In this document: positions 7,025 through 25,654 of the stretch, in pieces | Position numbering within the stretch: the first letter of the stretch is position 1 | Layout of the letters: every line of letters begins with the position of its first letter | Assembly (NCBI GenBank): GCA_963804815.1 | Contig: CAWDRU010000002.1 | Span: 450,754-514,753 of the forward strand | Direction of reading: 5' to 3' | Source of the DNA: Blastocatellia bacterium | GTDB lineage: Bacteria > Acidobacteriota > Blastocatellia > UBA7656 | DNA: 64,000 bases | Translations under genes and position numbers: made by a program | Notes under the pieces: model-generated | Told to the model about the DNA's origin: nothing | The model's database searches: none | Seen by the model: only the letters and a program-made list of their open reading frames with translations

Positions 7025-7034
7025 ATATTTATTC

Positions 7035-7937: not shown

Positions 7938-8034
7938 ATTGTTTGCCTCCGTCTGATATGAATTTCGTTCCTCCCGGAAACGGGTAGGTTATTATTTCGA
8001 GAGAGATTCTTCAACCATCGAACGCAGCTTTAGA

Positions 8035-9297: not shown

Positions 9298-9371
9298 GGG
9301 CAGAAATAAGAGTTATCATCAAACTGTGACATCGCAGGTTTTCTTATTGGCCGGAAGTCTTTAACATCGAA

Positions 9372-10565
9372 TCATCTCTTCCCGCGCACGAGTCCGTATT
9401 TTTCCAGAACGCTGTCTTCCCATCTGAAATAATCGTCAAACGCTTTGTCGGCTTCTACAGAATCGGCGATATCGGTCTGGACTAAAGCTTTTTCGTCCTT
9501 TCCAGCCGCATCAATTATGCCCGCCCGTTTATTAAAGATTTCGACGAGGCGTTTGCTTATTTCAGCGCTGGGCTGGTCAATCGGCGGAATTCTGTCGATG
9601 TCAGACGCAATGCCTTTCAAACGTTCGGCTACTTGATGCATATCCTGTTTCTGGCCGGGCGCACTGATTGACTCGTCCCATGCTTTTTTTCCATCTCGAA
9701 CGTGATTGGAAAGCAGTATCACGTTTCTGGTCTGGAACTCTCGCTCCTGAAGCTCGCCATAACCTTTGCCTGCCAGCGCAAAGCTCGATGCCAGAACCAG
9801 AATGCAAATGATTGCCACAGCGTTCCAACTCACGACTGCGCGGTTTGTTGCGGGCGCATCAGGATTGACCACGAATCCCAGACCGGCTCCGGCAATGAAG
9901 CCGCTCGCGTGAGCCACGTTGTTTGCGCCTATCATGATGCCGAACATGAATCCAATCGCTCCCCAGATGAGCATCTGCCTCATTATCGCTTTGCCGTAAG
10001 TCCCGCCCAGCTTGTAGCCGTAGACGGCCATCAAACCTATCAGTCCGAATATTGCCCCGCTCGCGCCCGCGCCGCCGATGTTAAAAAAATAAGATGCGAC
10101 GGCGCTCGTGACTCCGGTCAGCATATACAGGAATATGAATTTCTGAGAGCCGTAAAGCTCTTCGACCTGCGGCCCGATCTGGTAAAGGGCCGAGCTGTTG
10201 AACAGCAGGTGCATCAACCCTATGTGGAGAAAGTTGTATGTCACAAGCCTCCACCATTGGCCTGCTGTAACGGCTGGCGGATAGAGACCTCCGAAGTCGT
10301 AGAGCACAGCGCCGCTGGGGCTTTGAATAAAGGCATCGGCTCCGCGCCCGTTATTTACTTCGACTATTGCCATCAGCACGAAGAGCAGAAGGTTGATCGA
10401 AAGAATAATCAAAGAGATGAAAGAAGAACTCCCCACAGCCGCGCTCGCTCGCGCTCTGAGCGGGGGAACGGATTCTTTTCCGCACATGGGACAGGGATTT
10501 GCCGACGCTTCAACCAGCGCGCGACATGCCTGGCACATCACCAGTTTTTTTCGCTCACCAAACAT
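9372..10565 (-). CDS. rhomboid family intramembrane serine protease (paralogue of the upstream gene)
   Basis: Zinc ribbon CQAC...CPMCG. Rhomboid core with GASGAIFGLIG, HIGLMHLLFN and AHASG. Same architecture as 8035-9297. Confidence 0.85.
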   Translation of the reverse strand: MFGERKKLVMCQACRALVEASANPCPMCGKESVPPLRARASAAVGSSSFISLIILSINLLLFVLMAIVEVNNGRGADAFIQSPSGAVLYDFGGLYPPAVTAGQWWRLVTYNFLHIGLMHLLFNSSALYQIGPQVEELYGSQKFIFLYMLTGVTSAVASYFFNIGGAGASGAIFGLIGLMAVYGYKLGGTYGKAIMRQMLIWGAIGFMFGIMIGANNVAHASGFIAGAGLGFVVNPDAPATNRAVVSWNAVAIICILVLASSFALAGKGYGELQEREFQTRNVILLSNHVRDGKKAWDESISAPGQKQDMHQVAERLKGIASDIDRIPPIDQPSAEISKRLVEIFNKRAGIIDAAGKDEKALVQTDIADSVEADKAFDDYFRWEDSVLEKYGLVRGKR

Positions 10566-10656
10566 AGATCAAAAAAGGCCCGGATGAAAAACGATTGAAT
10601 AGTAATGATGAATGATGAACGAACGAAAAGCTCTTAATTCATCAGTCATCGTTTCT

Positions 10657-11838
10657 TTAGAATGCTTCGATAATCATGGCAATGCCCTGACCGCCGCCGA
10701 TGCAGGCCGTCGCAAGCCCTCGTTTTTTTCCTCGCCGCCGCAGTTCAAGCAACAGGGTCAGAACCAGACGTGTGCCCGATGCTCCGAGCGGGTGGCCGAG
10801 CGCAATCGCGCCGCCGTTGACATTCGTGCGTGTGCGGTCAAGCCCCAGTTCTCGCTCGACCGCAAGGTACTGGCCTGCGAATGCTTCGTTGACTTCGACC
10901 AGATCGATGTCGTCGAGGCTCAAGCTGGCGGCGGCGAGCGCTTTCTGCGAGGCAGGCACAGGGCCAATGCCCATTATCTCAGGCGGCACACCCGCGACGC
11001 CCCACGAGACTATGCGGCCAAGCGGACGCGCTTCAAGCCTGTGCGCAGTCTTTTCGTCTGCAATGACTACGGCTGCCGCGCCATCAACTATGCCCGAAGC
11101 ATTGCCCGCCGTGACAAGCCCGTCTTTTGCGAAAGCCGGTTTGAGTCTGGAAAGCCCTTCTATAGTTGTGTCGGGGCGCAGATGATCGTCGCGCTCAAAC
11201 ATCCGGGTTGCTTTGCGGCCTTTGATCTCGACCGGCACTATCTCGTCTGCAAACGCGCCTGCTTCCCACGCGGCGGCTGCGCGTTGCTGGCTCAGCAGCG
11301 CAAACTCGTCCTGCATTTCGCGCGAGATTTCAAATTTGCGCGCGAGGTTTTCTGCCGTCTGCGCCATATAGTAGCCGCAATGCGTATCGAGCAATGCGAC
11401 CATCAGCGAGTCTTCGAGTTTGCCTTCGCCGAGTTTCAGCCCCCATCGCGCTCCGCGAATGACGTGCGGGGCCTGGCTCATCGATTCCATGCCGCCTGCA
11501 AGCACCGTCTCTGCTTCGCCGAGTTGAATCATCTGCGCGCCGGAGATGATTGATTGAATCCCTGAGCCGCAAAGTCGATTGACCGTCAGCGCCGGTTTGT
11601 CGATCGGCACACCGGCTTTCAACGCGACGTGGCGCGCGCCGTAAATGGCGTCGCCCGAAGTCTGCAAAGCGTTTCCGATTACTGTGTGATCAATCGCATC
11701 GGGCGAAATGTTGCTGCGTTCAATCGCCGCGCGCGCGGCAATTGCTCCCAACTCGTTAGCCGTCAGATCGCGAAGCGCGCCGCCATATTCGCCCATCGGG
11801 GTTCGCGCGCCGCCGAGTATCAAAATCTCTTTTGCCAT
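10657..11838 (-). CDS. acetyl-CoA C-acetyltransferase (thiolase II)
   Basis: 393 aa. Contains the LCGSG active-site Cys region, NVNGGAIALGHPLGASG and GLATACIGGGQG thiolase signatures. Confidence 0.95.
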   Translation of the reverse strand: MAKEILILGGARTPMGEYGGALRDLTANELGAIAARAAIERSNISPDAIDHTVIGNALQTSGDAIYGARHVALKAGVPIDKPALTVNRLCGSGIQSIISGAQMIQLGEAETVLAGGMESMSQAPHVIRGARWGLKLGEGKLEDSLMVALLDTHCGYYMAQTAENLARKFEISREMQDEFALLSQQRAAAAWEAGAFADEIVPVEIKGRKATRMFERDDHLRPDTTIEGLSRLKPAFAKDGLVTAGNASGIVDGAAAVVIADEKTAHRLEARPLGRIVSWGVAGVPPEIMGIGPVPASQKALAAASLSLDDIDLVEVNEAFAGQYLAVERELGLDRTRTNVNGGAIALGHPLGASGTRLVLTLLLELRRRGKKRGLATACIGGGQGIAMIIEAF

Positions 11839-11990
11839 AAATTCTCCGAAATGTTAATGACTGAATTTAAATTAACAGAACGGCATCGCTCGTTCAAATA
11901 TCGTACGAAATAGACGATAAATAATTGGTCGATTGACAGTAAGTTTAATCTCAAATAGAATTACAAAGCCGCATTTAAGAAAGCTCCCTA

Positions 11991-12246
11991 TTAAAATAAC
12001 GTGAATTCGACATAATGATCGAAGTAAAAGCCCTGAAAGGGCGAAATTCAATAGCCGTGGGTGAAACCCACGGTATGCAATGCCACTACCACACAAGCCC
12101 TGTAAGGGCGAAATAAATCACTTGGTTTATTTCGCCCTTACAGGGCTTATAGTTTATCTTGATGCAAGACACAGGGCGATGCCCTGTGCTATTGAATTTC
12201 GCCCTTTCAGGGCTGATTATTATGTCGAATTCACGTTAAAATAATT
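11991..12246. repeat. structured palindromic element of about 256 bp. Imperfect terminal inverted repeats of about 60 bp enclose three internal hairpins, possibly a MITE or structured ncRNA.
   Basis: The left arm ttaaaataacgtgaattcgacataat...agccctgaaagggcgaaattcaatagc is mirrored by gctattgaatttcgccctttcagggct...attatgtcgaattcacgttaaaataatt. Internal hairpins: ccgtgggtgaaacccacgg (12055-12073), a perfect 21-bp-arm hairpin gccctgtaagggcgaaataaa/tttatttcgcccttacagggc (12097-12146), and cacagggcgatgccctgtg (12170-12188). Confidence 0.6.
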
Positions 12247-12503
12247 GAATTGTCCCGGAGTGATTGACTGAATTTTCAATATCGCTCTTCAATGCAGTTT
12301 TCAAAAATGTTCTCTGCAAAAGCATCCGAGGTTCGCTGGAAATCGATCAGTTGATTAGGGAAGATTTTGCTTTTGCAAGCGGTCTAAATAGATGTTGGGA
12401 AAGTAATATACGAGCAAAGGGAGAAAACATCGAAGACTGGCAGTAACTGCTAATCAAAGCCATTCCCATTGCCCTCTTGACTGGATAAAATAAGGAGAAA
12501 CGG

Positions 12504-15500
12504 ATGAAGAACCTGAACGACCGGACGCTTACAGAACTGTCTAAACGACTGGCATATATAAGAAATAAGCCGCTACTGGTAGTTTCGAGTATTATGCTTC
12601 TATCTTTTGCCGTCATAGCTTTGCCAGTAGCAATGCTTAAAGTCACCGCCGCCGGACAGCCCGCCGAATCCCAGATAAGCGAAGCCGCTCAACTACAGAT
12701 CAAGGCGCTGCTGGACGAAAAAGAGTCGCGCACGCCAGCGCAACAGAAAATAGATTCGCAACTTATTTATGCCAGCAAGATGTTTCGCGGGCAAAGTATT
12801 GCCGCCGGTGTGCCGACTCTTGAAGTAGAAGTCGGACTCGACAGCTCTGGAAAAGCTACAGTTGATATTATAACGATAATTGATGATAAGGTGCTGTCCG
12901 CGCTCAAATCAGTCGGAGCCGAAATCCTTTATTCCTCCGAAGTCTATCAGAGCATCCGCGCTGTTGTACCGATTGACAGACTTGAAACAATCGCGGCTCT
13001 TCAGCAGGTTCGATTCATTCAGCCGAAACAGGAATCCAGAACTTCCCAGCGTGTGCAGCGACCGCCGAGCTTGCCCGGTCAGGTTTCGCAAACTCCCGGC
13101 TTCGATGCGCGCGCCGCGCAGGTGCGCGCTCAAGTGTCGGAAGCGATGACTGATGCCATCCTGCCCAACGGCACTCTGAGCGTCGGCAGCGTCGCCTCCG
13201 AGGGCGATTCTACGCACAGAGCCTCGACCGCGCGCGGCACATTCAATGTTAACGGAACGGGCATCAAGATCGGTGTGATTTCAGACGGTGTAACCAATCT
13301 TGCAGCCTCTCAGGCTTTAGGTGATCTTGGAACGGTGACTGTGTTGCCGGGGCAGGTTGGGAGCGGCGACGAAGGCACGGCGATGCTGGAGATCATTCAT
13401 GACGTAGCGCCGGGCGCGCAGCTTTTCTTTGCGACTGCCGACCCTACGATCACGCAATTTGCTCAAAACATCCGCGATCTGCGGACAGCCGGTTGCGACA
13501 TCATAGTTGACGACGTGGGCTATTTCGTTGAATCGGCATTTCAGGACGGTACGCCGGGCGTCACGAATACCAACGGTGGTGCCGTCACTCAAGCCGTGAA
13601 TGATGTTGTGGCAGCGGGCGCGCTCTATTTCTCGTCGGCTGCGAATTCAGGCAACAAAAATGACAACACCTCAACCACGTGGGAAGGCGATTTCGCCAAC
13701 GGCGGCACGCTTGCCGTTGTCCCAGGCGGCGGCACTGTTCATGATTTCGATCCGTCAGCCGCTGTCGCGCAGATTGATATAATCACTGTCGGCGGGGGAA
13801 CAGGCGTTCCCATCAACCTTTCGTGGTCAGACGCGCTCGGCGCTTCATCCAACGATTATGATCTGTTCATTCTGAACAATGCCGGAACAGCTGTCAGCAC
13901 TTCTTCCACAAACATTCAGAGCGGCACGCAAGACCCTTATGAGCAGGTCAATACAAATAACACAACAGGCCGTCGCGTTGTGATTCGCCAGAAAGCGGGC
14001 GCGGCCAATCGCTTCGTTCATCTGAGCCTCAACGGCGGGCTGATAACTTTCAACACTCAGGGCGAAACGCACGGGCATGCTGCGGCCTCCGGTTGTTATG
14101 GCGTAGCGGCGACCCCTGCCTTTTCAGCTTTCAATTTCCCGCCGCCTCTGAACGTCGGGCCTTATCCGGGGGCTTATAACGGAACCAGTCAGGTGGAATT
14201 TTTCAGTTCTGACGGCCCGCGCAAGTTTTTCTATAACGGCAACGGTACAGCCATCACTCCGGGCGACTTTTCATCAACCGGCGGCACGACTATTCAGCAA
14301 CCTGTTATCTCGGCTGCCGACGGCGTAGTCGTCACCGGAGTCGGAGATTTCCCGGTTCCATTCTTCGGCACGTCAGCCGCAGCGCCGCACGCTGCCGCCA
14401 TCGCGGGCCTCATCAAATCAGCCAATCCGTCATTCACACAGGCGCAGATCAAGACGGCTCTGACCACGACGGCTATTGATATAGAGACGGCTGGAACAGA
14501 CCGCGACGCAGGGTTCGGCATCGTCATGCCTTACCCGGCGCTGCAATCGCTCGGCGTGACGGGCAAGGCGTTTCTCGAACCGGGTTCGATTACGGCGACA
14601 GAAGTTTGCTGCAACTCCAACGGATTGATCGAGCGCGGCGAAAGTGCTTCACTAAACGTCGTCTTGAATAATCCGGGGCTGTTGAACGCGACGGGCATCA
14701 CTTCAACTCTGGCTACATCAACGCCGGGCGTCACTGTACTGAGCGGCTCATCTGCTTATTCAGACCTTGCTGCAACCTCTGGCACAGGGACGAACGCGAC
14801 GCCGTTCAGCTTCTCGTTAGCCACGAATTCGGCGGTTGATCTGGTAATTAATTTTACCTTGACGGTTAGCTATGCGGGCGGATGGAATCCGTCGCAGGTA
14901 ATCAACTTCACAGTCGAAACCGGTCGCAAGCCGATCACTACGGTATTAGATACTACAACTCCGACGACCAGCACCAGCTTCCCAACATCCATAACCGGAA
15001 CGCAGACAAATCTTGTTTTCCCGGATGATCCGCCAAGCACCTGCGCGGTTCCTACAGCATTTCCGGGCACGCTTACGTCAACGACTCCAAGGTTTGATTC
15101 TTACACTTTGACGAACACAAGTGGGGCCACCGCCTGCGTAACAATTACGATAACGGCTGACAAAACCGCACTCGGCGCTGTTCAGGCAGTTGCGTATAAC
15201 GGAGCTTTCAATCCGGCAAGCGTCGGCACGAATTATCTGGCGGATCCCGGATTCAGCTCTATAGTCTTCCCCGGCTATCCCGGAGTTTTCTCCGGCAATA
15301 TTCCTGCCGCGGGAACCCTCACTGTTGTTGTGGTTGAATTGAAATCACCCGCGAATGGTTTCCCAAGCGCGGTCGGCAGCAGTTACACGCTCAAGGTGGC
15401 GGGTCTGCCCGTGACCGCTGCGCCGACGCTGGCAAAGGTCGGCTCGTTCGACGCGATAAATTCTAACGACGGGCGCGTGCTTCTGAAATGGAACTCGACT

Positions 15501-17903
15501 TATGAGGTAGAAAATCTCGGCTACAACGTCTACCGCGAAGTCGCTGGCCAGCGCACGAAAGTCAATCCTCAACTCATCGCCGGTTCGGCGCTGATCACCG
15601 GCGACAAGGTTGCGCTCGGTTCAGGAAAGGGCTATGCGTGGGGAGATCAGCCGCAGTCAACAGCCTCGGCCCGCTACTGGCTCGAAGCCGTTGACCTCAA
15701 CGGCCAGAGCACCTGGACCGGACCCGTTTCGGTCAAGTCTTTCTCCGGCAATCCCGCCGCTAACCTCGAACAGTCCGCCCTGCTGACCAGAATCGGTCTG
15801 GCTCAGGCTCAGATGACCCTCGGTCAGGGGTCAACTCCTGTCGAAGCGCGCGCGCAGGTGGCGGCGGTTTCCGCTGCGGGCTTGCAGACTCAAACGGGGC
15901 TGGCCGGTCAGGCAGCCGTCAAGATAGCTGTCAGGCGCGAAGGCTGGTATCGAATCTCGCAAGGCGAATTGGTTGCGGCGGGACTTGATTCGAGAGTCGA
16001 TCCGCGCAACCTCCAACTCTATGTTGACGGGCAGGCAGTCGGGATGGTTGTCAACGGCGAGCAGGACGGCAGATTCGAGGCTGCGGATTCACTGGAGTTC
16101 TACGGCGTGGGACTCAACAGCGCAGCCACAGACGCACACGTCTACTGGCTGGCGGCAAGCACACAACCCGGCACACGCATAAAGGCAACGCGGGCGACGG
16201 GCGGAACAGCGACCTCAGCAAGCTTCCCCTACAGCGTGGAACGCAAAGACCGGACGTTGTATTTCTCAGCCTTGAAAAACGGGGATGTGGAGAACTTCTT
16301 CGGGCCGGTCGTATCAGCGACGGGAATCGAGCAGACGCTGGCGCTGACAGGACTCGCGGCAGGGGCGGCATCTGCGAGCCTTGACGTGTCGCTGCAAGGG
16401 GTGACGGGACTGACGCATCAGGTGAGAGTGCTGCTCAATGGAGCGAACGTCGGAGTAGTGAACTTCACCGGGCAGAGTCAGGGCAAGGCTCGCCTTGCCC
16501 TATCACAGAGCCAGTTGCGAGAAGGAGTGAACACGGTGCAGCTGACGGCGCTGGGAGGCAGTTCGGACATAAGCCTTGTTGAAAGCCTGAGAGTCACCTA
16601 TCAGCGGAAGTACACGGCAGACAACAACGCGCTGAGGCTGAACGCGGCAGGCGGGCAGCAGGTGACGATAGGAGGGTTCACATCGACCGGCATACGAGTG
16701 ATGGATGTGACGGATTGGAACAACGTGCAGGAGTTGACCGGAGCAGTATTGGGAGGGAAGACGAACGGAAGCATCACAATAACGGTGCCGGGAACAGGGC
16801 CGCGAGTGTTGTATGCGTTTTCGTCAGACCGGGCGATGAGCGTGACGCCAAAGGCGAACACGCCGTCGAACCTGAGGGGAGGAAGCCCTGCCGCCGATTA
16901 CATAATGATAACGACAAGAGAGATGGCGGCGAGCCTGAATCCGTTGAAGACGTTGAGAGAGAGTCAGGGCCTTGCAGTAGCGGTCGTGGACGTAGAGGAC
17001 ATCTATGACGAGTTCAGCTACGGGAACAAGAATGCGCAGGCGGTGAAGGATTACCTGACGCTGGCCAACAGTAGTTTTGGAAGGCCGGTGAGATTCGTGC
17101 TGCTTGCAGGAGATGCGAGCTATGACCCGAAGAATTATCTGGGATACGGAGACAGCGACCTTGTGCCGACGAAGCTGTATGACAGCGGGTACATGGAAGC
17201 GGCGACAGATGATGGGTTCGTGGACTTCAATGGAGACAATGTGCCGGATGTGGCGATAGGGAGGTTGCCGGTGCGCAACGCGACGGAAGCGGCGGCAATG
17301 GTAGGAAAGATAGTTCGATATGAAAGCTCAGCAGGGTCGAATACGGTGCTGCTGTCATCAGATCTGGGAGACGGGTATAACTTCGGGTCAGTGAACACAG
17401 CGCTGAGAGGACTGCTGCCGTCCGGAGTGGGGGTGAGCGAAATAAACCGAGGAAGCGCGGATGACGGGGTAGTTAGAAATCAGCTTCTTGAGGCGATCAA
17501 CGCGGGACAGAAGATCGTGAATTATAATGGACACGGAAGCGTGACTCTGTTGAGAGGCAACATTCTGACAGGAAGTGATGCGGCAACAATGACAAACACC
17601 CAGAAGCTGTCGGTGTTTGTGATGATGACGTGTCTGAATGGATACTTTGATGATCCGGGAGTAGACAGCCTGAGCGAGAGCGTGATGAAGGCAGCGGGAG
17701 GAGCAGCGGGAGCGTGGGCATCAGCTGCGCAGTGCGAACCGTTCGGACAAGCACTGATGAATCAGGAGCTATATCGTTTGTTGTTTAACGGTCAGAATCT
17801 GACGCTGGGCGAAGCGACGGCGAAAGCAAAAGCCTCGGTCAGCGACGTTGACGTGCGAAGGTCGTGGATCTATTTCGGAGACCCGGCGATGAAGCTGAAG
17901 TAA
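12504..17903 (+). CDS. giant secreted dual-protease protein. Signal anchor, subtilase-like (S8) domain, Thr/Ser-rich beta and FN3-like middle region, C-terminal gingipain-like (peptidase C25) domain.
   Basis: 1799 aa with a ribosome-binding site ataaggaga. S8-like motifs: IGVISDGV (Asp), IIHDVAPGA (His), SAANSGN (Asn) and GTSAAAPHAAAIAGL (Ser). C25-like region: FVLLAGDASYDP...DVAIGRLPV...IVRYES...NYNGHGSV (His) ...MMTCLNGYF (Cys). A terminator hairpin lies downstream. Confidence 0.9.
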   Translation: MKNLNDRTLTELSKRLAYIRNKPLLVVSSIMLLSFAVIALPVAMLKVTAAGQPAESQISEAAQLQIKALLDEKESRTPAQQKIDSQLIYASKMFRGQSIAAGVPTLEVEVGLDSSGKATVDIITIIDDKVLSALKSVGAEILYSSEVYQSIRAVVPIDRLETIAALQQVRFIQPKQESRTSQRVQRPPSLPGQVSQTPGFDARAAQVRAQVSEAMTDAILPNGTLSVGSVASEGDSTHRASTARGTFNVNGTGIKIGVISDGVTNLAASQALGDLGTVTVLPGQVGSGDEGTAMLEIIHDVAPGAQLFFATADPTITQFAQNIRDLRTAGCDIIVDDVGYFVESAFQDGTPGVTNTNGGAVTQAVNDVVAAGALYFSSAANSGNKNDNTSTTWEGDFANGGTLAVVPGGGTVHDFDPSAAVAQIDIITVGGGTGVPINLSWSDALGASSNDYDLFILNNAGTAVSTSSTNIQSGTQDPYEQVNTNNTTGRRVVIRQKAGAANRFVHLSLNGGLITFNTQGETHGHAAASGCYGVAATPAFSAFNFPPPLNVGPYPGAYNGTSQVEFFSSDGPRKFFYNGNGTAITPGDFSSTGGTTIQQPVISAADGVVVTGVGDFPVPFFGTSAAAPHAAAIAGLIKSANPSFTQAQIKTALTTTAIDIETAGTDRDAGFGIVMPYPALQSLGVTGKAFLEPGSITATEVCCNSNGLIERGESASLNVVLNNPGLLNATGITSTLATSTPGVTVLSGSSAYSDLAATSGTGTNATPFSFSLATNSAVDLVINFTLTVSYAGGWNPSQVINFTVETGRKPITTVLDTTTPTTSTSFPTSITGTQTNLVFPDDPPSTCAVPTAFPGTLTSTTPRFDSYTLTNTSGATACVTITITADKTALGAVQAVAYNGAFNPASVGTNYLADPGFSSIVFPGYPGVFSGNIPAAGTLTVVVVELKSPANGFPSAVGSSYTLKVAGLPVTAAPTLAKVGSFDAINSNDGRVLLKWNSTYEVENLGYNVYREVAGQRTKVNPQLIAGSALITGDKVALGSGKGYAWGDQPQSTASARYWLEAVDLNGQSTWTGPVSVKSFSGNPAANLEQSALLTRIGLAQAQMTLGQGSTPVEARAQVAAVSAAGLQTQTGLAGQAAVKIAVRREGWYRISQGELVAAGLDSRVDPRNLQLYVDGQAVGMVVNGEQDGRFEAADSLEFYGVGLNSAATDAHVYWLAASTQPGTRIKATRATGGTATSASFPYSVERKDRTLYFSALKNGDVENFFGPVVSATGIEQTLALTGLAAGAASASLDVSLQGVTGLTHQVRVLLNGANVGVVNFTGQSQGKARLALSQSQLREGVNTVQLTALGGSSDISLVESLRVTYQRKYTADNNALRLNAAGGQQVTIGGFTSTGIRVMDVTDWNNVQELTGAVLGGKTNGSITITVPGTGPRVLYAFSSDRAMSVTPKANTPSNLRGGSPAADYIMITTREMAASLNPLKTLRESQGLAVAVVDVEDIYDEFSYGNKNAQAVKDYLTLANSSFGRPVRFVLLAGDASYDPKNYLGYGDSDLVPTKLYDSGYMEAATDDGFVDFNGDNVPDVAIGRLPVRNATEAAAMVGKIVRYESSAGSNTVLLSSDLGDGYNFGSVNTALRGLLPSGVGVSEINRGSADDGVVRNQLLEAINAGQKIVNYNGHGSVTLLRGNILTGSDAATMTNTQKLSVFVMMTCLNGYFDDPGVDSLSESVMKAAGGAAGAWASAAQCEPFGQALMNQELYRLLFNGQNLTLGEATAKAKASVSDVDVRRSWIYFGDPAMKLK

Positions 17904-17937
17904 GAAGGCAGCGTTCGTAATGATAGATTGTAAGAAA

Positions 17938-17972
17938 GGGCTGAGGAGGAAACTTCTCGGCCCTCTTTTTTT
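17938..17972 (+). terminator. rho-independent terminator after the first giant protease gene
   Basis: Hairpin agggctgag...ctcggccct followed by ttttttt. The same element is duplicated after the second copy. Confidence 0.6.
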
Positions 17973-18367
17973 GAAAGGGCCGATCAGTGGTTAAACGATG
18001 ATATTGATTATTGACAGTAGAGATGCATCACCTCTAGAATAAAGCCGCTGCATTATGGAGCAAATGTAGCTTGTTTGTCGGGTCAGGGCTAATGTGGCAA
18101 TTAACATAATTAAACCTGCGAGAGTAATTAGTTTTATTGCTCTTTAAATGGGTGATTGGACTTGACTGCTCTGTAAACTCAACCCCCTTTCTCAATCTGA
18201 ATAAAACGGTAGCCTGGCTAATCAGGCTGGCGCTATTCAATCGAACAATGGTTATTAACGCTTGCAACAGGAATAGACCTCCTGCAAAAGAAGTCGAATC
18301 TTCGACTGTCATCAAAATAAGGAAAGAAATAATTTTGCAAGAGGTCTAATAGAATAAGGAGAGACTT

Positions 18368-21300
18368 ATGAAAAAACTGAACGGCTCAAAGCTTACCAGA
18401 TTGCCGAATCGCCCGGCACATAAAAAGATCAACCCTGTTCTGATACTTTCGAGTATCCTTTTATTGTCGATTGCCATTATAGCTTTGCCAGGCCTGAGGA
18501 CGAGAGTCACCGCTGCGGGCCAGCCCCAAAAGAGCAGCGCCGAATCGCAGATAAGCGAAGCCGCTCAACTACAGATCAAAGCACTGCTGGACGAAAAAGA
18601 GTCGCGCACGCCAGCGCAACAGAAAATAGATTCGCAACTTATTTATGCCAGTAAGATGTATCGCGGGCAGAGCGTCGCCGCAGGGATTTCAACCCTCGAA
18701 GTGAATGTCGGACTTGAAAGCGACGGAAGAGTAGTCGTTGACCTGACGGCCTATGTGGTCGATGACAAACTGCTCGCCGGGATCAAGGCAGCCGGGGGCG
18801 AAGTCATGATCGTTTCCGCGCCTTATGGCAGCGTCCGCGTCAAAGTTTCCATAAATCAGTTAGAGACAATCGCGGGCTTCTCGCAGGTTCGGTTCATTCA
18901 GCCGGAGCAAAAAGCTCTGGTGTCGTCTCAGCGCACAAGGCCGACCGACAACGTGTCGGATCAGGCCGCGCAGTCTCCGAGTTTTGAAGCGCGCGCCGAG
19001 TCTGTGCGCGAACAACTCTCTGACGCACTGAATAACGCCATACTGCCCAACGGCACACTCAGCACCGGCAACTTCGCGTCCGAAGGCGACACCACGCATC
19101 GAGCCACAACCGCGCGGGGCACTTTCAATGTTGACGGAACGGGCATCAAGATCGGCGTCCTCTCAAACGGCGTGGTCAGTTTGGCTCAGGCTCAGGCGAC
19201 GGGCGATCTTGGACCGGTGACCGTGTTGGTGGGACAAACAGGTTCAGCCGACGAAGGCACGGCGATGCTTGAGATCGTTCACGACATCGCTCCGGGTGCG
19301 CAGCTTTTCTTTGCCACAGGCTTGCCGACCATCACCCAGTTTGCGCAAAACATCCGCGACCTGCGCACGGCGGGTTGCGACATCATCGTTGATGATCTGG
19401 GCTACTTTGTAGAATCGCCGTTTCAGGACGGGCAGACCGGAACCACCAACACCAACGGCGGCGTTGTCACTCAAGCCGTCAACGATGTCGTAGCCGCAGG
19501 CGCGCTGTATTTTTCGTCAGCGGCAAATTCGGGCAACAAGAATGACAACACGTCAGGCACGTGGGAAGGCGATTTCGTCAGCGGCGGCACGCTGGCCCTT
19601 ATCCCCGGCGGCGGATTAGTTAACGACTTCGACCCGTCGGCAGCGGTCGCGCAGAATAACCTGCTCACCCTCGGCGGAGGCGCAACCTCTCCCATCAGTA
19701 TTGCGTGGTCAGACCCGCTCGGCGGCTCATCGAACGATTATGACTTGTTCATCCTGAACAATGCGGGAACGACTGTGGTCGCGTCTTCGACCAATACTCA
19801 GAGCGGCACGCAGGACCCTTATGAACAGACGGGCAGCAACACGACTAACAACCGGGCCGTGATTCGCCAGAAAGCGGGTGCGCTCAATCGCTTCCTTCAC
19901 CTGTCAACCAACAGAGGGCGTCTAACTTTCAGCACCGATGGCGAAACGCACGGCCATGCCTGTGCCACCGGAGCCTACGGCGTGGCTGCAACGCCAGCCT
20001 ACTCGCCGTTCAACTTCGCGCCGCCGCCGGTATTCGGCCCTTTCCCCAACTTCTACAGCACAGCGGATAAAGTCGAAACCTTCAGTTCTGACGGCCCGCG
20101 CCGAATTTTCTTTAACGGTAATGGTACGGCCATAACCCCCGGCGATTTTTCATCGACTGGCGGTCAGGTCTTGCAGCAACCGCTCATCACGGCTGCCGAC
20201 GGCGTGGCTGTAACGGGCGTGGGAGGATTCGCGTCGCCGTTCTTCGGAACCTCGGCAGCAGCGCCGCACGCCGCCGCTATCGCGGGACTAATCAAATCGG
20301 CCAATCCGTCGTTTACGCAGGCGCAGATCAAGACGGCCCTGACCACGACGGCGCTTGATATTGAAGCGGCAGGCACAGACCGCGATTCCGGGTTCGGCAC
20401 CATCATGCCTTACGCCGCTCTGCAATCGCTCGGTGTGACCGGCAAAGCCTTTATCGAACTCGGCACGGCCACGGCCACGGAAACCTGTTGCAACCTGAAC
20501 GGTTTGATCGAACGAGGCGAAGGCGCTTCGCTCAACGTCGTTTTAAATAATCCGGGATTGTTGAACGCGACGGGCATCACTTCAACTCTGGCTACTACAA
20601 CACCGGGCGTAAGCATACTGAACAACACGTCAGCCTACACAGACCTTGTGGCGACCTCCGGCACAGCGGCGAACACAACGCCGTTCGCCTTCTCATTGTC
20701 CACAATTGCTGCGGTTGATGTGACGATTAATTTCACCTTGACGGTCAGTTACACGGGCGGGTGGAATCCGTCGCAGGTAATCAATTTCACGGTTGAAACA
20801 GGCCGTAAATCCATTACCACGACTATAGACACCACAGCGCCGACGACCAGCACCAGCTTCCCGACGACGGCGACAAACAACCAGACAGCGCGTCTGTTCC
20901 GCGCAGACCCGGCCAGCACCTGCGCCGTTCCGCACGCATTCCCCGGAACATCGGGAGCAGGAAACAGGAGGTTCGATTCTTACACCTTGACCAATCCTGC
21001 CGGTTCTCCGACGGCCTGCGTCACAGTAACGCTAACGATTGACAAAGCTGCGACAGACTTTTTACAGGCTGTCGCATATTCGGGCAGCTTTAACCCGGCC
21101 AGTTTGGGCACGAACTTCATAGCCGATATTGGGGCCAGTCCCAGTATTGGTTATGCCAAGTCTCTTTCTTTCAATCTTGCCGGAGGCGCGACTGTTGTTA
21201 TTGTCGTAAACGAAACAACAGCCGCTGGCGCGGGAACAAACACGCCTTACACGTTGAGGGTGGCGGGCATACCCATAACCGCTGCGCCGACGCTGGCAAA

Positions 21301-23767
21301 GGTCGGCTCGTTTGACGCGATAAATTCTAACGACGGGCGCGTGCTTCTGAAATGGAACTCGACTTACGAAGTAGAAAATCTCGGCTACAACGTCTACCGC
21401 GAAGCCAGCGGCCAGCGCACGAAAGTCAATCCTCAACTCATCGCCGGTTCGGCGCTGATCACCGGCGACAAGGTTGCGCTCGGTTCAGGAAAGGGCTATG
21501 CGTGGGGAGATCAGCCGCAGTCAACAGCCTCGGCCCGCTACTGGCTCGAAGCCATTGACCTCAACGGCCAGAGCACCTGGACCGGACCCGTTTCGGTCAA
21601 GTCTTTCTCCGGCAATCCCGCCGCTAACCTCGAACAGTCCGCCCTGCTGACCAGAATCGGGCTTGCTCAGGCTCAGATGACCCTCGGTCAAGGGTCAACT
21701 CCTGTTGAATCACGCGCGCAGGTGGCGGCGGTTTCCGCCGCGGGCTTGCAGACTCAAACGGGGCTGGCCGGTCAGGCAGCCGTCAAGATAGCTGTCAGGC
21801 GCGAAGGCTGGTATCGAATCTCGCAAGGCGAATTGGTTGCGGCGGGACTTGATTCGAGAGTCGATCCGCGCAACCTCCAACTCTATGTTGACGGGCAGGC
21901 AGTCGGGATGGTCGTCAACGGCGAGCAGGACGGCAGATTCGAGGCTGCGGATTCACTGGAGTTCTACGGCGTGGGACTCAACAGCGCAGCCACAGACGCG
22001 CACGTCTACTGGCTGGCGGCAAGCACACAACCCGGCACACGCATAAAGGCGACGCGGGCGACGGGCGGAACAGCGGCCTCGGCCAGCTTCCCCTACAGCG
22101 TGGAACGCAAAGACCGGACGTTGTATTTCTCGGCCCTGAAAAACGGGGATGTGGAGAACTTCTTCGGGCCGGTCGTATCAGGGACGGGAATCGAGCAGAC
22201 GCTGGCGCTGACAGGACTCGCGGCAGGGGCGGCATCTGCGAGCCTTGACGTGTCGCTGCAAGGGGTGACGGGACTGACGCATCAGGTGAGAGTGCTGCTC
22301 AACGGAGCGAACGTCGGAGTAGTGAACTTCACCGGGCAAAGTCAGGGCAAGTCGAGCCTTGTCATATCACAGAGCCAGTTGCGAGAAGGAGTGAACACGG
22401 TGCAGCTGACGGCGCTGGGAGGCAGTTCGGACATAAGCCTTGTTGAAAGCCTGAGAGTCACCTATCAGCGGAAGTACACGGCAGACAACAACGCGCTGAG
22501 GCTGAACGCGGCAGGCGGGCAGCAGGTGACGATAGGAGGGTTCACATCGACCGGCATACGAGTGATGGACGTGACGGATTGGAACAACGTGCAGGAGTTG
22601 ACCGGAGCAGTATTGGGAGGGAAGACGAACGGAAGCATCACAATAACGGTGGCTGGAACAGGGCCGCGAGTGTTGTATGCGTTTTCGTCAGACCGGGCGA
22701 TGAGTGTGACGCCAAAGGCGAACACGCCGTCAAACCTGAGAGGAGGAAGCCCTGCCGCCGACTACATAATGATAACGACAAGAGAGATGGCGGCGAGCCT
22801 GAATCCGTTGAAGACGTTGAGAGAGAGTCAGAGCCTTGCAGTAGCGGTCGTGGACGTAGAGGACATCTATGACGAGTTCAGCTACGGGAACAAGAATCCA
22901 CAGGCGGTGAAGGATTACCTGACGCTGGCCAACAGCAGTTTTGGAAGGCCGGTGAGATTCGTGCTGCTTGCAGGAGATGCGAGCTATGACCCGAAGAATT
23001 ATCTGGGATACGGAGACAGCGACCTTGTGCCGACGAAGCTGTATGACAGCGGGTACATGGAAGCGGCGACAGATGACGGGTTCGTGGACTTCAATGGAGA
23101 CAATGTGCCGGATGTGGCGATAGGGCGGTTGCCTGTGAAAAACGCGACGGAAGCGGCGGCAATGGTAGGAAAGATAGTTCGGTACGAAAGTTCAACAGGG
23201 TCGAATACGGTGCTGCTGTCATCAGATCTGGGAGACGGGTATAACTTCGGGTCAGTGAACACAGCGCTGAGAGGACTGCTGCCGTCTGGAGTGGGGGTGA
23301 GCGAAATAAACCGAGGCAGTGCGGATGACGGGGTAGTTAGAAATCAGCTTCTTGAGGCGATCAACGCGGGACAGAAGATCGTGAATTATAACGGGCACGG
23401 AAGCGTGACTCTGTTGAGAGGCAACATTCTGACAGGAAGTGATGCGGCAACAATGACAAACACCCAGAAGCTGACGGTGTTTGTGATGATGACGTGTCTG
23501 AACGGATACTTTGATGATCCGGGAGTAGACAGCCTGAGCGAGAGCGTGATGAAATCGAATGGAGGAGCAGCGGGAGCGTGGGCATCGACAGCGCAGTGCG
23601 AACCGTTCGGACAAGCACTGATGAATCAGGAGCTATATCGTTTGTTGTTTAACGGTCAGAATCTGACGCTGGGCGAAGCGACGGCGAAAGCAAAAGCCTC
23701 GGTCAGCGACGTTGACGTGCGAAGGTCGTGGATCTATTTCGGAGACCCGGCGATGAAGCTGAAGTAA
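18368..23767 (+). CDS. tandem paralogue of the giant S8 + C25 dual-protease protein
   Basis: Exactly 1799 aa, with the same motifs (GTSAAAPHAAAIAGL; NYNGHGSV; MMTCLNGYF). The C-terminal 830 aa are about 98 percent identical to the first copy. The N-terminal 970 aa are about 70 percent identical. Confidence 0.9.
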   Translation: MKKLNGSKLTRLPNRPAHKKINPVLILSSILLLSIAIIALPGLRTRVTAAGQPQKSSAESQISEAAQLQIKALLDEKESRTPAQQKIDSQLIYASKMYRGQSVAAGISTLEVNVGLESDGRVVVDLTAYVVDDKLLAGIKAAGGEVMIVSAPYGSVRVKVSINQLETIAGFSQVRFIQPEQKALVSSQRTRPTDNVSDQAAQSPSFEARAESVREQLSDALNNAILPNGTLSTGNFASEGDTTHRATTARGTFNVDGTGIKIGVLSNGVVSLAQAQATGDLGPVTVLVGQTGSADEGTAMLEIVHDIAPGAQLFFATGLPTITQFAQNIRDLRTAGCDIIVDDLGYFVESPFQDGQTGTTNTNGGVVTQAVNDVVAAGALYFSSAANSGNKNDNTSGTWEGDFVSGGTLALIPGGGLVNDFDPSAAVAQNNLLTLGGGATSPISIAWSDPLGGSSNDYDLFILNNAGTTVVASSTNTQSGTQDPYEQTGSNTTNNRAVIRQKAGALNRFLHLSTNRGRLTFSTDGETHGHACATGAYGVAATPAYSPFNFAPPPVFGPFPNFYSTADKVETFSSDGPRRIFFNGNGTAITPGDFSSTGGQVLQQPLITAADGVAVTGVGGFASPFFGTSAAAPHAAAIAGLIKSANPSFTQAQIKTALTTTALDIEAAGTDRDSGFGTIMPYAALQSLGVTGKAFIELGTATATETCCNLNGLIERGEGASLNVVLNNPGLLNATGITSTLATTTPGVSILNNTSAYTDLVATSGTAANTTPFAFSLSTIAAVDVTINFTLTVSYTGGWNPSQVINFTVETGRKSITTTIDTTAPTTSTSFPTTATNNQTARLFRADPASTCAVPHAFPGTSGAGNRRFDSYTLTNPAGSPTACVTVTLTIDKAATDFLQAVAYSGSFNPASLGTNFIADIGASPSIGYAKSLSFNLAGGATVVIVVNETTAAGAGTNTPYTLRVAGIPITAAPTLAKVGSFDAINSNDGRVLLKWNSTYEVENLGYNVYREASGQRTKVNPQLIAGSALITGDKVALGSGKGYAWGDQPQSTASARYWLEAIDLNGQSTWTGPVSVKSFSGNPAANLEQSALLTRIGLAQAQMTLGQGSTPVESRAQVAAVSAAGLQTQTGLAGQAAVKIAVRREGWYRISQGELVAAGLDSRVDPRNLQLYVDGQAVGMVVNGEQDGRFEAADSLEFYGVGLNSAATDAHVYWLAASTQPGTRIKATRATGGTAASASFPYSVERKDRTLYFSALKNGDVENFFGPVVSGTGIEQTLALTGLAAGAASASLDVSLQGVTGLTHQVRVLLNGANVGVVNFTGQSQGKSSLVISQSQLREGVNTVQLTALGGSSDISLVESLRVTYQRKYTADNNALRLNAAGGQQVTIGGFTSTGIRVMDVTDWNNVQELTGAVLGGKTNGSITITVAGTGPRVLYAFSSDRAMSVTPKANTPSNLRGGSPAADYIMITTREMAASLNPLKTLRESQSLAVAVVDVEDIYDEFSYGNKNPQAVKDYLTLANSSFGRPVRFVLLAGDASYDPKNYLGYGDSDLVPTKLYDSGYMEAATDDGFVDFNGDNVPDVAIGRLPVKNATEAAAMVGKIVRYESSTGSNTVLLSSDLGDGYNFGSVNTALRGLLPSGVGVSEINRGSADDGVVRNQLLEAINAGQKIVNYNGHGSVTLLRGNILTGSDAATMTNTQKLTVFVMMTCLNGYFDDPGVDSLSESVMKSNGGAAGAWASTAQCEPFGQALMNQELYRLLFNGQNLTLGEATAKAKASVSDVDVRRSWIYFGDPAMKLK

Positions 23768-23801
23768 GAAGGCTGCGTCCGATGTAATAAAATGTAAGAA
23801 A

Positions 23802-23836
23802 GGGCTGAGGAGGAAACTTCTCGGCCCTCTTTTTTT
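23802..23836 (+). terminator. rho-independent terminator after the second giant protease gene
   Basis: Identical hairpin plus T-run to the one at 17938-17972. Confidence 0.6.
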
Positions 23837-23995
23837 GGCTAAGGCCGGACACTGTTTGACTCCGGGATTGTTTTCTCTTAACCCTTCCGATAAAATCCTT
23901 GATGTCGTATTCTAGCCGTTATGGTCTCTCAGGCGGACAGAGAGCGAACGTGCCTGAATTCGCTCAATCTCATCGCTCAGAAGGACGGGCTTTTG

Positions 23996-25654
23996 ATGAC
24001 ACCGAAAAAACGACACTTGCTTCTCGTGGTGGCGTTGGTTTTGCCACTTACGTTTGCTGGCGCGCACCCCGCGCAACGTACAGCCGGGCAAACACAGGAT
24101 GATTCTGCTGGAAGAAAAAAGATAGCCGAAGATTTCGCGGAAGCCCTCCTGATGGCAAAAGACAAGTCCGCCGCCCAGATCGATTTTGACCGCATAACCA
24201 AATCTTCAATCTCAGGGATGCTGCGCACGCTCGACCCTCACTCTATGTATTTCGACCGGAAGCAATGGGAAGACTTTCAAAACGATCAGCACAGCCGTTA
24301 TTACGGCATCGGATCAGCCATCGTACAGCGTAACGGTAAAGTCTACATCTGGTCGCCTACGGACGGGACGGCCTCTTTTCGGGCAGGGCTTCGTTACGGC
24401 GATCATATCGTCGAGATCAATGGAGATTCGACCACCGGCTGGACTCAGGCGCAGGTCAGAAGCAAGCTGTTAGGCCCGGAAGGCACTCAACTGACCCTCA
24501 AGGTAGCGAGACTTGGTGTTGAAAAACCGCTCGAATTCAAGCTCACGCGCGGCGCTGTGCCGCTGCCTTCGGTGACCAACTATTTCATGCTCGGCAACGG
24601 CGTGGGCTACATAAACCTTGAGCGTGGATTCAATACGACTACATTTGAGGAAGTAGCAAAAGCGTTAGGCGAACTTCGCGATCAGGGAATGACCTCGCTG
24701 GTCTTCGACCTGCGCGGTAATCACGGCGGATTGGTAGATCAGGCGTGGCGCGTTTCAAATCTCTTCCTTTATCGCAATCAAAAGATACTTTCGATGCGAG
24801 GCCGCCCGACCGTCCTTCCCAACCGGGAATACAGCGCGAACAACCCTGCGCCCGACGACTACCCGATAGTCGTTTTGATCAACCGCGAGTCGGCATCGGC
24901 AGCAGAGATCGTCGCCGGAGCATTGCAGGATCATGACCGCGCGCGGCTGGTCGGCGAAAACAGCTTTGGCAAAGGGCTGGTCCAGAATCCATTCTCGCTG
25001 TCGGACGGTTCTGCGTTGATATTGACGACGGGGCACTATTACACGCCGAGCGGACGCTTGATTCAACGCGAATACAGCGGACGATCTTTTTATGACTACT
25101 ACCTCAAGCGCGGCGATAAAGAAGCGATCAATCGCACGGAAGAGAAACGCACCGACAGCGGGCGCACTGTTTACGGCGGCGGCGGAATCGACCCGGATGT
25201 CGAAGTAAAGGTGAGAATCACGCCTAAAGAGTTAGAGCTTCAGCGCGTGTGGTTCGAGCCTGTATTTGAGTTCGTGCATGTGCTCGTGGCGGGCAAGCTT
25301 TCGGGATTCGGCGAGTACAAGCTGGAACGTCCAGCCGATCACCAGCATCGCCTCTCGCCGAGTGAATACGCTATCAGCGACAAGCTGGTGGCTGCGTTCA
25401 AAAGTTTTATTCACGAGCGCAAAGACCTGAAAGCCGACGAGACACGCATAGACAAAGAAACGGATTTCATAAAGCGCCAGATTCGTTACGAACTCGTGAC
25501 GGCTGCATACGGCTCTGAGACTGCCTATCAGGTGCTGCTCGATGTGGACAATCAGGTTCAGCGCGCGATTACAGAGATGCCGAAAGCAAAGGTCATGGCC
25601 GAAGACATTCGCCGTTTGCGCGCCGGAGCCCGCGACGAGATCCGCAGACAATAA
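23996..25654 (+). CDS. S41 family C-terminal processing (tail-specific) peptidase
   Basis: Signal peptide MTPKKRHLLLVVALVLPLTFA, a PDZ-like region, and S41 catalytic motifs VFDLRGNHGGL and VLINRESASAAEIVAGALQD (Ser/Lys dyad region). The ORF track opens at 23921. The start at Met26 was chosen because of the signal peptide. Confidence 0.8.
   Translation: MTPKKRHLLLVVALVLPLTFAGAHPAQRTAGQTQDDSAGRKKIAEDFAEALLMAKDKSAAQIDFDRITKSSISGMLRTLDPHSMYFDRKQWEDFQNDQHSRYYGIGSAIVQRNGKVYIWSPTDGTASFRAGLRYGDHIVEINGDSTTGWTQAQVRSKLLGPEGTQLTLKVARLGVEKPLEFKLTRGAVPLPSVTNYFMLGNGVGYINLERGFNTTTFEEVAKALGELRDQGMTSLVFDLRGNHGGLVDQAWRVSNLFLYRNQKILSMRGRPTVLPNREYSANNPAPDDYPIVVLINRESASAAEIVAGALQDHDRARLVGENSFGKGLVQNPFSLSDGSALILTTGHYYTPSGRLIQREYSGRSFYDYYLKRGDKEAINRTEEKRTDSGRTVYGGGGIDPDVEVKVRITPKELELQRVWFEPVFEFVHVLVAGKLSGFGEYKLERPADHQHRLSPSEYAISDKLVAAFKSFIHERKDLKADETRIDKETDFIKRQIRYELVTAAYGSETAYQVLLDVDNQVQRAITEMPKAKVMAEDIRRLRAGARDEIRRQ

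Follow-up and report, generated by a model that had tools for sequence, protein, structure and literature searches.

The window analyzed, a 64,000-nt stretch of DNA from an uncultured soil acidobacterium (Blastocatellia), carries two giant protease genes as tandem neighbors on the forward strand. Both open reading frames, copy 1 at 12504–17903 and copy 2 at 18368–23767, encode proteins of exactly 1799 aa, as the original prediction had stated. Copy 1 consists of an N-terminal signal or anchor, a type-1 S8 head (residues 1–970), and a C25 module (residues 971–1799); copy 2 joins a type-2 S8 head to a C25 module. The neighboring genes encode a thiolase, rhomboids, an S41 peptidase, DinB, and a CHAT-TPR protein. 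A search of the window for a third copy found none, and exact-protein look-ups of the two full 1799-aa proteins found neither on record.

The two genes lie in abutting units (approximately 11932–17974 and 18010–23838), each with its own promoter-like site, coding sequence, and terminator-like hairpin. The promoter-like sites are putative and based on consensus matches, TTGACA-17-TAGAAT at 11933–11961 for copy 1 and TTGACA-18-TAGAAT at 18011–18040 for copy 2, both on the forward strand, and they are homologous to each other. Intrinsic-terminator-like hairpins with T-runs are found on the same strand at 17937–17973 (hairpin 17937–17964) and 23801–23837 (hairpin 23801–23828).

The heads matched the subtilase profile PF00082 partially (profile positions 72–288 and 135–288) and scored 61.5 and 55.4 bits (cutoff 21.8). 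The domain of copy 1 is located at 13380–14519 (E = 1e-16), and its Ser motif GTSAAAPH (Ser624) aligns to solved subtilases; the sequence ISDGV contains a candidate Asp, and no canonical HGTH motif was seen by eye. The C25 catalytic domain, at 16899–17897 in copy 1 (PF01364, E = 2e-75), was matched by residues 1466–1798 with 254.9 and 258.1 bits in the two proteins against a cutoff of 23. His1677 (nt 17532, in NGHGS) and Cys1710 (nt 17631, in MTCLNG) occupy the positions of the PorU and RgpB His and Cys when aligned with these proteins, and they are invariant in an alignment of 82 sequences. An AlphaFold2 model of the module had a pLDDT of 88, with a confident fold from residue ~977, and Foldseek matched this predicted structure to PorU (6za2, E = 8e-31 over 815 columns), RgpB (8e-16), and Kgp (3e-13). 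PorU 6za2 was also the best PDB match of the tail in phmmer (1e-8); the sequence identity to PorU and the gingipains is only 16–19%. By profile, catalytic dyad, and modeled fold, the tail thus appears to be a PorU/gingipain-like member of peptidase family C25 and a predicted peptidase.

Sequence Identity between the Two Copies

We aligned copy 1 and copy 2 with MAFFT and computed their identity in sliding windows. Nucleotide identity was 47–86% in the 5′ part, save for one patch of 91–97%, and 91–100% from 15403 on. The maximum chi-square breakpoint fell after 15413 in copy 1 and 21277 in copy 2, with a chi-square of 614.5 (200 shuffles reached no more than 16.6); 799 of the 2889 columns (27.7%) differed to its left and 68 of 2490 to its right. 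The transition from 14–16 to 30 identical positions per 30 nt spans ~60 nt, and the boundary is therefore sharp rather than gradual and lies, as claimed before, at codon 970/971, between LPV and TAAPTLAKV. The most diverged stretch of the gene, with 47–56% nucleotide identity and indels, is found directly upstream of the linker between the head and the C25 module.

The near-identical tract (15414–17973 in copy 1 and 21278–23837 in copy 2) is ungapped at an offset of 5864 and takes in the C25 module and stop codon together with the 3′ UTR and terminator, ending with the T-run. The figure of ~98% in the original prediction was slightly high, as 76 of the 2560 nucleotides differ (3.0%) and the identity is 97.0%. 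Within the 3′ UTR, 8 of 70 nucleotides differ, the last 45 nt with the hairpin and T-run being identical; beyond 17973/23837, the identity is random, and 71 of 100 positions differ. The heads are 70% identical in amino acids (residues 96–971), within the 65–75% given earlier, but the many indels described there amount to just seven small ones. These sum to +7 aa and –7 aa, and the equal length of the two proteins is therefore coincidental. The earlier account also omitted the short homogenized patch in the 5′ part, at 12662–12787 (codons 54–95) in copy 1 and 18538–18663 in copy 2, both on the forward strand, in which 5 of 126 nucleotides differ between the copies and 10–18 in all other pairs, whatever the head type.

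The synonymous divergence between the copies reached 1.06 in the heads but was 14-fold lower, at 0.076, in the tails. The 68 coding differences in the tract fall in 37 synonymous and 19 nonsynonymous codons, with a dN/dS of 0.16. They are clustered, with differences of 2–3 nt at codons 1014, 1591, 1731, and others, a pattern that one clean event with subsequent point mutation would not predict; a search for templated origins of the clustered multinucleotide differences found derived states without a clear match to any sampled paralog. The differences involve all base types with no adenine bias, and no reverse transcriptase is found among the neighboring genes, leading us to reject a diversity-generating retroelement as their source. 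Derived states within the tract are split 19/18 between the copies.

The original prediction named the near-identical repeats as a likely site of assembly collapse and recombination. In GCA_049590935.1, an independent short-read assembly (MAG) of the same strain with contigs covering 2504–15672 and 17783–21536 of the window, one contig indeed ends inside the repeat at 15672 and another spans 17783–21536. These contigs confirm that both head–tail junctions are physically real and that both copies are present in one genome.

Comparison with Other Genomes

Each head is 91–92% identical in amino acids to an ortholog in another genome; the tails are 98% identical to each other and 78–84% to orthologs. 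In neighbor-joining trees of the heads, copy 1 grouped with P0001 and copy 2 with P0002, P0003, and P0004, both with 100% bootstrap support. The tree of the tails was incongruent with this and joined copy 1 with copy 2, again at 100%. The dS of the heads to their orthologs, 0.51 for type 1 and 0.30–0.36 for type 2, is comparable with that of the flanking genes for thiolase, 3HCDH, rhomboid, S41, and DinB (0.34–0.85), indicating that both heads are older than the splits between the species, whereas coalescence of the tails is at ~0.08. The tails of both copies are farther from every ortholog (dS 0.71–0.96) than the heads are, which places the source lineage of the tails outside the sampled set.

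A comparison of orthologous loci for copy number and conversion, as proposed with the original prediction, supported conversion through the incongruent trees but recovered the tandem in none of the relatives. At the syntenic loci, L082 has type 1 alone and L084 type 2 alone, L083 has type 2 with another C25 gene, and the combination of types 1 and 2 in tandem was absent from all sampled relatives; the ancestral tandem state is for this reason deduced rather than observed. The head of copy 2 contains patches of 95–100% nucleotide identity to L083, and in the chimeric P0004 a type-2 head is joined to a tail from another lineage. In a metagenome scan for close relatives bearing the tandem, the best match was 54% over the C25 module, the only closer one being a 76% head fragment (L149), and the scan revealed no new homogenized pairs within a genome.

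Several features of the tails bear on the direction of copying. They are type-2-like at 72% of the informative sites and group with type-2 orthologs with 99% bootstrap support, and their GC3 of 66.5–67.1% matches that of the type-2 head (65.8%). The affinity and GC3 are suggestive of type 2 having been copied onto copy 1, a signal confounded by the species tree, as the adjacent flanking genes also place the type-2 genomes nearer. We rejected repeated bidirectional conversion producing a type-1/type-2 patchwork, as a runs test counted 130 runs where 136.8 were expected, a nonsignificant difference.

Looking for positive selection on the heads, we found no 60-codon window reaching a pN/pS of 1, the maximum being ~0.5. 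Between genomes, the C25 half is the faster part, with pN mostly 0.10–0.18 past its first ~110 codons versus mostly 0.00–0.08 in the heads. As a control, more than 25 orthologous pairs at 88–92% identity had equally similar heads and tails and thus no intrinsic difference in rate. A ~10-fold slower evolution of synonymous sites in the C25 half than in the heads is contradicted by the orthologue comparisons of dS, pN/pS, and head and tail identity. The original prediction considered the S8 half to be diversifying and suggested that this may be a mechanism of diversification of the secreted protease; the data do not support active diversification, the two heads being old, stable lineages and conserved alternatives.

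The C25 module of ~830 aa is found across Acidobacteriota, fused to many different heads. Family-wide homology begins at residues 971–975, with a consensus starting PTAA (junction motif PTAAxLxSF), and in tblastn searches of 79 genome loci, most matches, namely those at loci that include the 5′ part of the gene, began at module residues 1–4. The gene pair reveals the head–module junction to be an evolutionary seam in this large uncharacterized family of giant secreted proteins. A literature search for an acidobacterial C25 family returned nothing relevant.

The same junction-bounded pattern was observed in two unrelated genomes. In one MAG, two dispersed copies (L028 and L029) have heads of 58–96% nucleotide identity and tails of 100% from ~40 nt before the module start; in the other genome, a tandem pair (L051) has heads of 62–87% and tails of 96–100% from the module start. 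Beside the junction, the heads of the dispersed copies are still ~88% identical, and limited homology alone may thus not account for the boundary there. Homogenization is no general rule for tandem C25 genes, as the L083 pair is 52% identical in amino acids and those at L001, L009, L089, and L100 have also diverged; most multicopy loci of the family are not homogenized (e.g., L083, L001, and L009 at ~50% amino acid identity). In two further pairs, L111/L114 and L124/L130, the break lies upstream of the junction, and these may represent orthologous regions. Among 139 modules, we found no near-identical tails on unrelated heads of the kind expected from true recent head swapping.

Discussion

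We consider it highly probable that the locus has undergone segmental concerted evolution, with gene conversion copying the C25 half and terminator between the tandem genes on the background of an old whole-gene duplicate. The breakpoint, the contrast at synonymous sites, the incongruence of the trees, the reality of both junctions, and the junction-bounded recurrence in other genomes are direct observations; we infer a RecA-type mechanism, a boundary limited by homology, and an ancestral tandem state. According to this history, an old tandem duplication would have created two units, each with a promoter, coding sequence, and terminator, and the S8 heads would then have diverged into the type-1 and type-2 lineages before the split from the related species. 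Much later, nonreciprocal homologous recombination, presumably dependent on RecA, would have copied the C25 module, stop codon, and terminator onto the other gene, after which the 68 coding differences would have accumulated about equally in the two copies. All homology still able to recombine would be contained in the tract: its 3′ limit would be the end of the duplicated unit just past the T-run, and its 5′ limit the linker before the C25 module, where the diverged stretch upstream would block the extension of the heteroduplex. The conversion would be a single and fairly recent event, with a dS of 0.076, rather than a long-lasting one.

The original prediction had left a choice between recent gene conversion and partial re-duplication as the cause of the homogenized C25 half. 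Recombination is supported by the low dS, the inclusion of noncoding 3′ sequence, and the fully supported incongruence of the trees, but simple re-duplication is less likely than conversion because the heads show species-level divergence from their orthologs and the tails coalesce much later. A different order of events, a recent duplication of the full gene followed by the replacement of the promoter and head of one copy through homologous recombination with DNA of a related strain, strikes us as unlikely. Its crossovers would fall at two places, the upstream flank and the beginning of the C25 module. The alternation of types 1 and 2 in the same syntenic slot resembles an allelic exchange of heads in a population, the patches shared by copy 2 and L083 indicate recent recombination between lineages at the locus, and the chimeric P0004 fits as well. 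Nevertheless, both heads are at species-level dS (0.30–0.51) from the nearest sampled orthologs and no close donor is known; the replacement needs two events and conversion one; and the homologous promoter-like sites and abutting units fit an old whole-gene duplication. Head replacement would still require a breakpoint at the same junction, differing only in the segment moved.

Purifying selection alone, keeping the C25 half similar while the heads drift, has next to no chance of being correct. The module does contain invariant catalytic and structural residues, but the contrast in dS already refutes the idea: selection on the protein cannot explain a low dS in the tails and a homogenized 3′ UTR and terminator, and among orthologs the tail evolves faster than the head or, in the control pairs, the two are equally similar. 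An artifact of assembly or polishing, in which repeat collapse or cross-mapped reads made the tails falsely similar or built the tandem from one copy, is very improbable. Repeats of 2.5 kb and 97% identity do pose difficulties in assembly, and it is precisely there that the short-read MAG of this strain is fragmented. Its contigs, however, continue from each head for 258 nt into the tract, one of them runs from the last 191 nt of copy 1 into copy 2, and they match the window at 99.99–100%, copy-specific SNPs included. The coding differences are also biologically patterned, dominated by synonymous codons under a low dN/dS, and the pattern recurs in two other assemblies.

Under the preferred reading of gene conversion, the locus provides a clean and well-controlled case from an uncultured soil acidobacterium, with a sharp boundary, orthologs for both heads, and replicates elsewhere. 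There is also a practical consequence: 2.5-kb repeats of 97–100% identity fragment short-read MAGs at genes with the C25 module, and such genes are therefore likely to be undercounted or truncated in metagenome catalogs.

A broader interpretation, which we regard as speculative and rather unlikely, is that of a family-wide system in Acidobacteriota, in which a constant PorU-like C25 "carrier" of ~830 aa bears exchangeable N-terminal heads (S8 protease, BNR/sortilin propeller, LTD, beta-helix, nuclease-like, and others) and the junction DNA is a preferred recombination point, shuffling heads and keeping some co-resident carriers identical. The identity would possibly be maintained because carriers have to fit a common partner or act upon one another in cis/trans sortase-like processing. 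If true, the family would represent a novel type of modular secretion or anchoring system whose evolutionary logic is the inverse of that seen in Rhs/CdiA toxins.

The C25 match, the fold, and the His–Cys dyad of the tail resemble PorU and the gingipains of Porphyromonas gingivalis; here, however, the host is an acidobacterium and not a member of Bacteroidota, the module is C-terminal in proteins with variable N-terminal heads, and no T9SS context was seen. A role in autoprocessing, sortase-like activity, or anchoring is conjectural.

Rhs/CdiA polymorphic toxins and autotransporters are modular families of a constant carrier and a variable payload. The C25 family resembles these families in having a conserved module on many alternative modules, recombination at the junction, and clustered genes, but its order is the reverse of that in Rhs/CdiA, with the variable part N-terminal and the constant part C-terminal. 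It also differs in that no immunity genes or orphan cassettes were seen and the near-identical tails on unrelated heads were missing from the 139 modules.

Concerted evolution in prokaryotes makes paralogs in a genome closer to each other than to their orthologs (PMC6053082); the locus departs from the general case in that only a part of the gene is affected and most multicopy loci of the family are unhomogenized. The closest parallel is found in babA/babB and homA/homB of Helicobacter pylori, in which the 5′ and middle regions show orthologous similarity between strains and a 3′ segment is similar within a strain; the review PMC3960876, with reference to Pride and Blaser 2002, attributes this pattern to intragenomic gene conversion that depends on RecA. 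Both copies here have the same signature as babA/babB, plus a short conserved 5′ patch. Unlike the dispersed H. pylori genes, those of the Blastocatellia bacterium are in tandem and no phase variation or expression switching is evident; their predicted products are giant secreted two-protease proteins, and the homogenized part is a PorU-like C25 module instead of a beta-barrel. Partial gene conversion is thus a known phenomenon, and here it ends exactly at the boundary of a protein module.

Results

The window carries two adjoining plus-strand ORFs, copy 1 (12504–17903) and copy 2 (18368–23767), each of 1,799 aa. Both have Pfam matches, to Peptidase_S8 within the N-terminal half and to Peptidase_C25 over residues 1466–1798; no third copy of the gene was found in the 64 kb. 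We call residues 1–970 the head and the C-terminal C25 module of ~830 aa (residues 971–1799) the tail. The promoter-like sites of the copies (TTGACA-17-TAGAAT at 11933; TTGACA-18-TAGAAT at 18011) are mutually homologous and the two gene units abut, which fits an old whole-gene tandem duplication. The Pfam match of the S8 domain starts only at profile position 72 in copy 1 (13380–14519) and 135 in copy 2; the serine motif GTSAAAPH is clear, the canonical HGTH histidine motif was not recognized in the domain, and 'GDEGTAMLEIIHD' occupies its expected place.

Sliding identity along a global alignment of the copies ranged from 47 to 86% across the 5′ 2.9 kb and rose abruptly to 91–100% from about 15403/21267 (copy 1/copy 2), and the original prediction had located and described this mosaic correctly. 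A maximum chi-square scan placed the breakpoint after 15413/21277, with 799 of 2,889 aligned positions differing to its left and 68 of 2,490 to its right (chi-square 614.5; highest value among 200 shuffles, 16.6); matches per 30-nt window climbed from 14–16 to 30 within about 60 nt. The near-identical tract is ungapped at an offset of 5,864 and runs past the stop codon to 17973/23837, beyond which 71 of 100 positions differ. As predicted, it takes in 3′ UTR with the terminator hairpin (17937–17964 and 23801–23828): the 70 nt of UTR hold eight differences, and the final 45 nt, comprising the hairpin and T-run, are identical. Over the whole tract, 76 differences in 2,560 nt give 97.0% identity, so the claimed near-identity stood and the figure of about 98% did not. 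The heads are as divergent as proposed (70% aa identity), with seven small indels rather than many; since these cancel (+7/−7 aa), the equal protein lengths are a coincidence. A second, short homogenized patch covers codons 54–95 (12662–12787/18538–18663), where the copies differ at 5 of 126 nt and every other pair of homologs, whatever the head type, at 10–18. The patch directly follows the signal or anchor region, and the distinction between the two head lineages, type 1 (copy 1) and type 2 (copy 2), vanishes there in all homologs.

Synonymous divergence between the copies (Nei–Gojobori) was 1.06 in the heads (codons 96–971) versus 0.076 in the tails (codons 972–1799), where dN/dS was 0.16. 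Given this contrast and the noncoding 3′ sequence within the tract, protein-level constraint is insufficient and was ruled out as the cause of the tail identity. Nor does the DNA of the C25 module have a low intrinsic rate of change: in a control of more than 25 orthologous pairs from other genomes with 88–92% identity, the module and the 1.5 kb upstream of it were equally similar. When orthologues of this gene are compared, the tail in fact outpaces the head in evolutionary rate, pN being mostly 0.10–0.18 in the tail beyond its first ~110 codons and mostly 0.00–0.08 in the heads. Both heads belong to conserved lineages and are under purifying selection (pN/pS ≤0.5 in every 60-codon window), so the proposed mechanism for diversifying the protease is not supported.

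An independent short-read Blastocatellia MAG of the same strain, GCA_049590935.1, has one contig matching window 2504–15672 with one mismatch and another of 3,754 nt matching 17783–21536 exactly, which confirms the junction of head and tail in each copy and the one between tail 1 and gene 2, copy-specific SNPs included. Its contigs terminate within the repeat, the assembly hazard that had been foreseen.

Full-length homologous proteins from other genomes (P0001–P0004) separated the histories of heads and tails. Type 1 heads (copy 1 and P0001) are 91% identical in amino acids and type 2 heads (copy 2 and P0002–P0004) 89–92%, with 70–72% between types. The two tails are 98% identical to each other, 83–84% to P0002 and P0003, 78% to P0001, and 57% to P0004. 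In neighbor-joining (NJ) trees with 300 bootstraps, the heads grouped as (copy 1, P0001) and (copy 2, P0002, P0003, P0004) and the tails as (copy 1, copy 2), each with 100% support. Head dS to orthologues (0.51 for type 1; 0.30–0.36 for type 2) is comparable to that of flanking housekeeping genes (0.34–0.85), so neither head is younger than the species splits; the tails coalesce at a dS of about 0.08.

The homologs occupy a syntenic slot with thiolase, rhomboids, and 3HCDH upstream and S41/PDZ, DinB, and CHAT-TPR downstream. Its content varies among loci in other genomes: L082 has type 1 only, L084 has type 2 only, and L083 (10001–21799) pairs type 2 with a BNR/sortilin-headed C25 gene, versus type 1 plus type 2 in the window. 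Around the copies, two rhomboid genes (8035–10565, minus strand) lie upstream and further genes of protease type directly downstream, one for an S41/PDZ peptidase (23921–25654) and one for a TPR-CHAT protein of 1,036 aa (26279–29389, minus strand), a neighborhood kept in L083 and L084. The copy 1 leader holds, between promoter-like site and ATG, a near-perfect palindrome of ~245 nt (11997–12238) with four GCCCTnnnAGGGC mini-hairpins and a single-stranded DNA fold of −97.6 kcal/mol (z = −19.9). The palindrome occurs once in the window, is missing from L082, the locus of the type-1 orthologue, and has the appearance of a MITE-type insertion.

The head of copy 2 is 95–100% identical in nucleotides to P0003, encoded at L083, over codons ~82–141 and ~804–935 (18611–18790 and 20777–21172) and ~90% elsewhere, which suggests recent between-lineage recombination inside the head. 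P0004 (L085/L086) is an older chimera, with a type-2 head to about residue 1105 and then a different tail lineage: nucleotide identity to P0003 is 84% across its head and the initial ~130 codons of its C25 module, and in amino acids the other tail lineage shares 65% identity with L083 gene 2 and 57% with the window.

Across the family, the tail is a mobile module. In a tblastn survey of 79 genome loci, mostly from MAGs of Blastocatellia and other Acidobacteriota, matches start at module residues 1–4 in most loci, whenever the 5′ part of the gene is present, and the consensus of an 82-sequence alignment is featureless before 'PTAAxLxSFxA..DGxVLLxWxTGxEVDNLGFNVYRE' and conserved from there on. 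The heads on the module are highly varied (LTD, GSDH, beta-helix, exo/endo-phosphatase, P-domain, cohesin/dockerin-like, CarboxypepD_reg, or none), and the S8 head is joined to many other tails (CarboxypepD_reg, DUF4214, Calx-beta, HYR). An AlphaFold2 model of residues 920–1799 (mean pLDDT 88) has low confidence as far as residue ~975, with a beta-sandwich modelled confidently from ~977, placing the breakpoint, codon 970/971, in an inter-module linker. As a whole, the module is most similar to PorU (6za2; phmmer 1e-8; Foldseek E = 8e-31 over 815 columns) and next to the gingipains, with His1677 and Cys1710 conserved.

The same junction-bounded mosaic was found in two unrelated genomes. L028/L029, dispersed copies in one Acidobacteriota MAG with heads 58–96% identical in nucleotides, are 100% identical from about 40 nt 5′ of the module start and 95–100% until shortly before the stop codon; L051, a tandem pair with heads at 62–87%, reaches 96–100% from module start to gene end. 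Homogenization is not the rule among copies of C25 genes, the L083 pair (52% aa identity) and L001, L009, L089, L100, and others having diverged.

Within the coding tract (15414–17903), 39 of the 68 differences have a neighbor within 3 nt (10 expected; maximum 23 in 1,000 randomizations), and nine codons, for example 1014, 1591, and 1731, carry two or three changes. Three of these codons differ at every position, and in each case one copy has the derived state when compared with all orthologues. The clustering could reflect multinucleotide mutation or micro-conversion from paralogues outside the sample.

Discussion

The best explanation of the mosaic, we infer, is gene conversion between tandem paralogues, as originally predicted for the C25 half: the dS contrast and the fully supported, discordant trees agree with it. 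Nonreciprocal homologous recombination would homogenize all homology still recombinable, with the 3′ end of the tract at the end of the duplicated unit and the 5′ end in the linker, adjoining the most diverged head sequence of the gene (47–56% nucleotide identity, with indels). The boundary would thus be set by the remaining homology. The L028/L029 heads beside the junction are still ~88% identical, and therefore selection against head homogenization, or a junction preference, may contribute.

A recent full duplication followed by head replacement is the main rival and a possible one, as head exchange between lineages is clear at the syntenic slot and the head of copy 2 bears the near-identical patches to L083, but it needs two events and a close donor outside the sampled set. 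The direction of the proposed conversion is blurred: the tails are type-2-like at 72% of informative sites and with 99% bootstrap, and GC3 is 66.5–67.1% in the tails, 65.8% in the type-2 head, and 58.7% in the type-1 head, signals confounded by the type-2-bearing genomes also being the closer relatives by adjacent flanking genes. Polarized with orthologues, the 56 differing tail codons are derived in copy 2 in 19 cases, in copy 1 in 18, and ambiguous in 19, as expected from independent divergence after one homogenizing event.

A literature search found no published work on the acidobacterial C25 family. The mosaic matches the segmental concerted evolution of Helicobacter pylori babA/babB and homA/homB, in which the 5′ and middle parts are similar between strains and the 3′ segment within a strain, a pattern attributed to RecA-dependent gene conversion (PMC3960876), and it agrees with how concerted evolution in prokaryotes is generally defined (PMC6053082). 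The phenomenon is therefore already known; what is new is the gene family, the way the boundary falls exactly on the module seam, and the recurrence.
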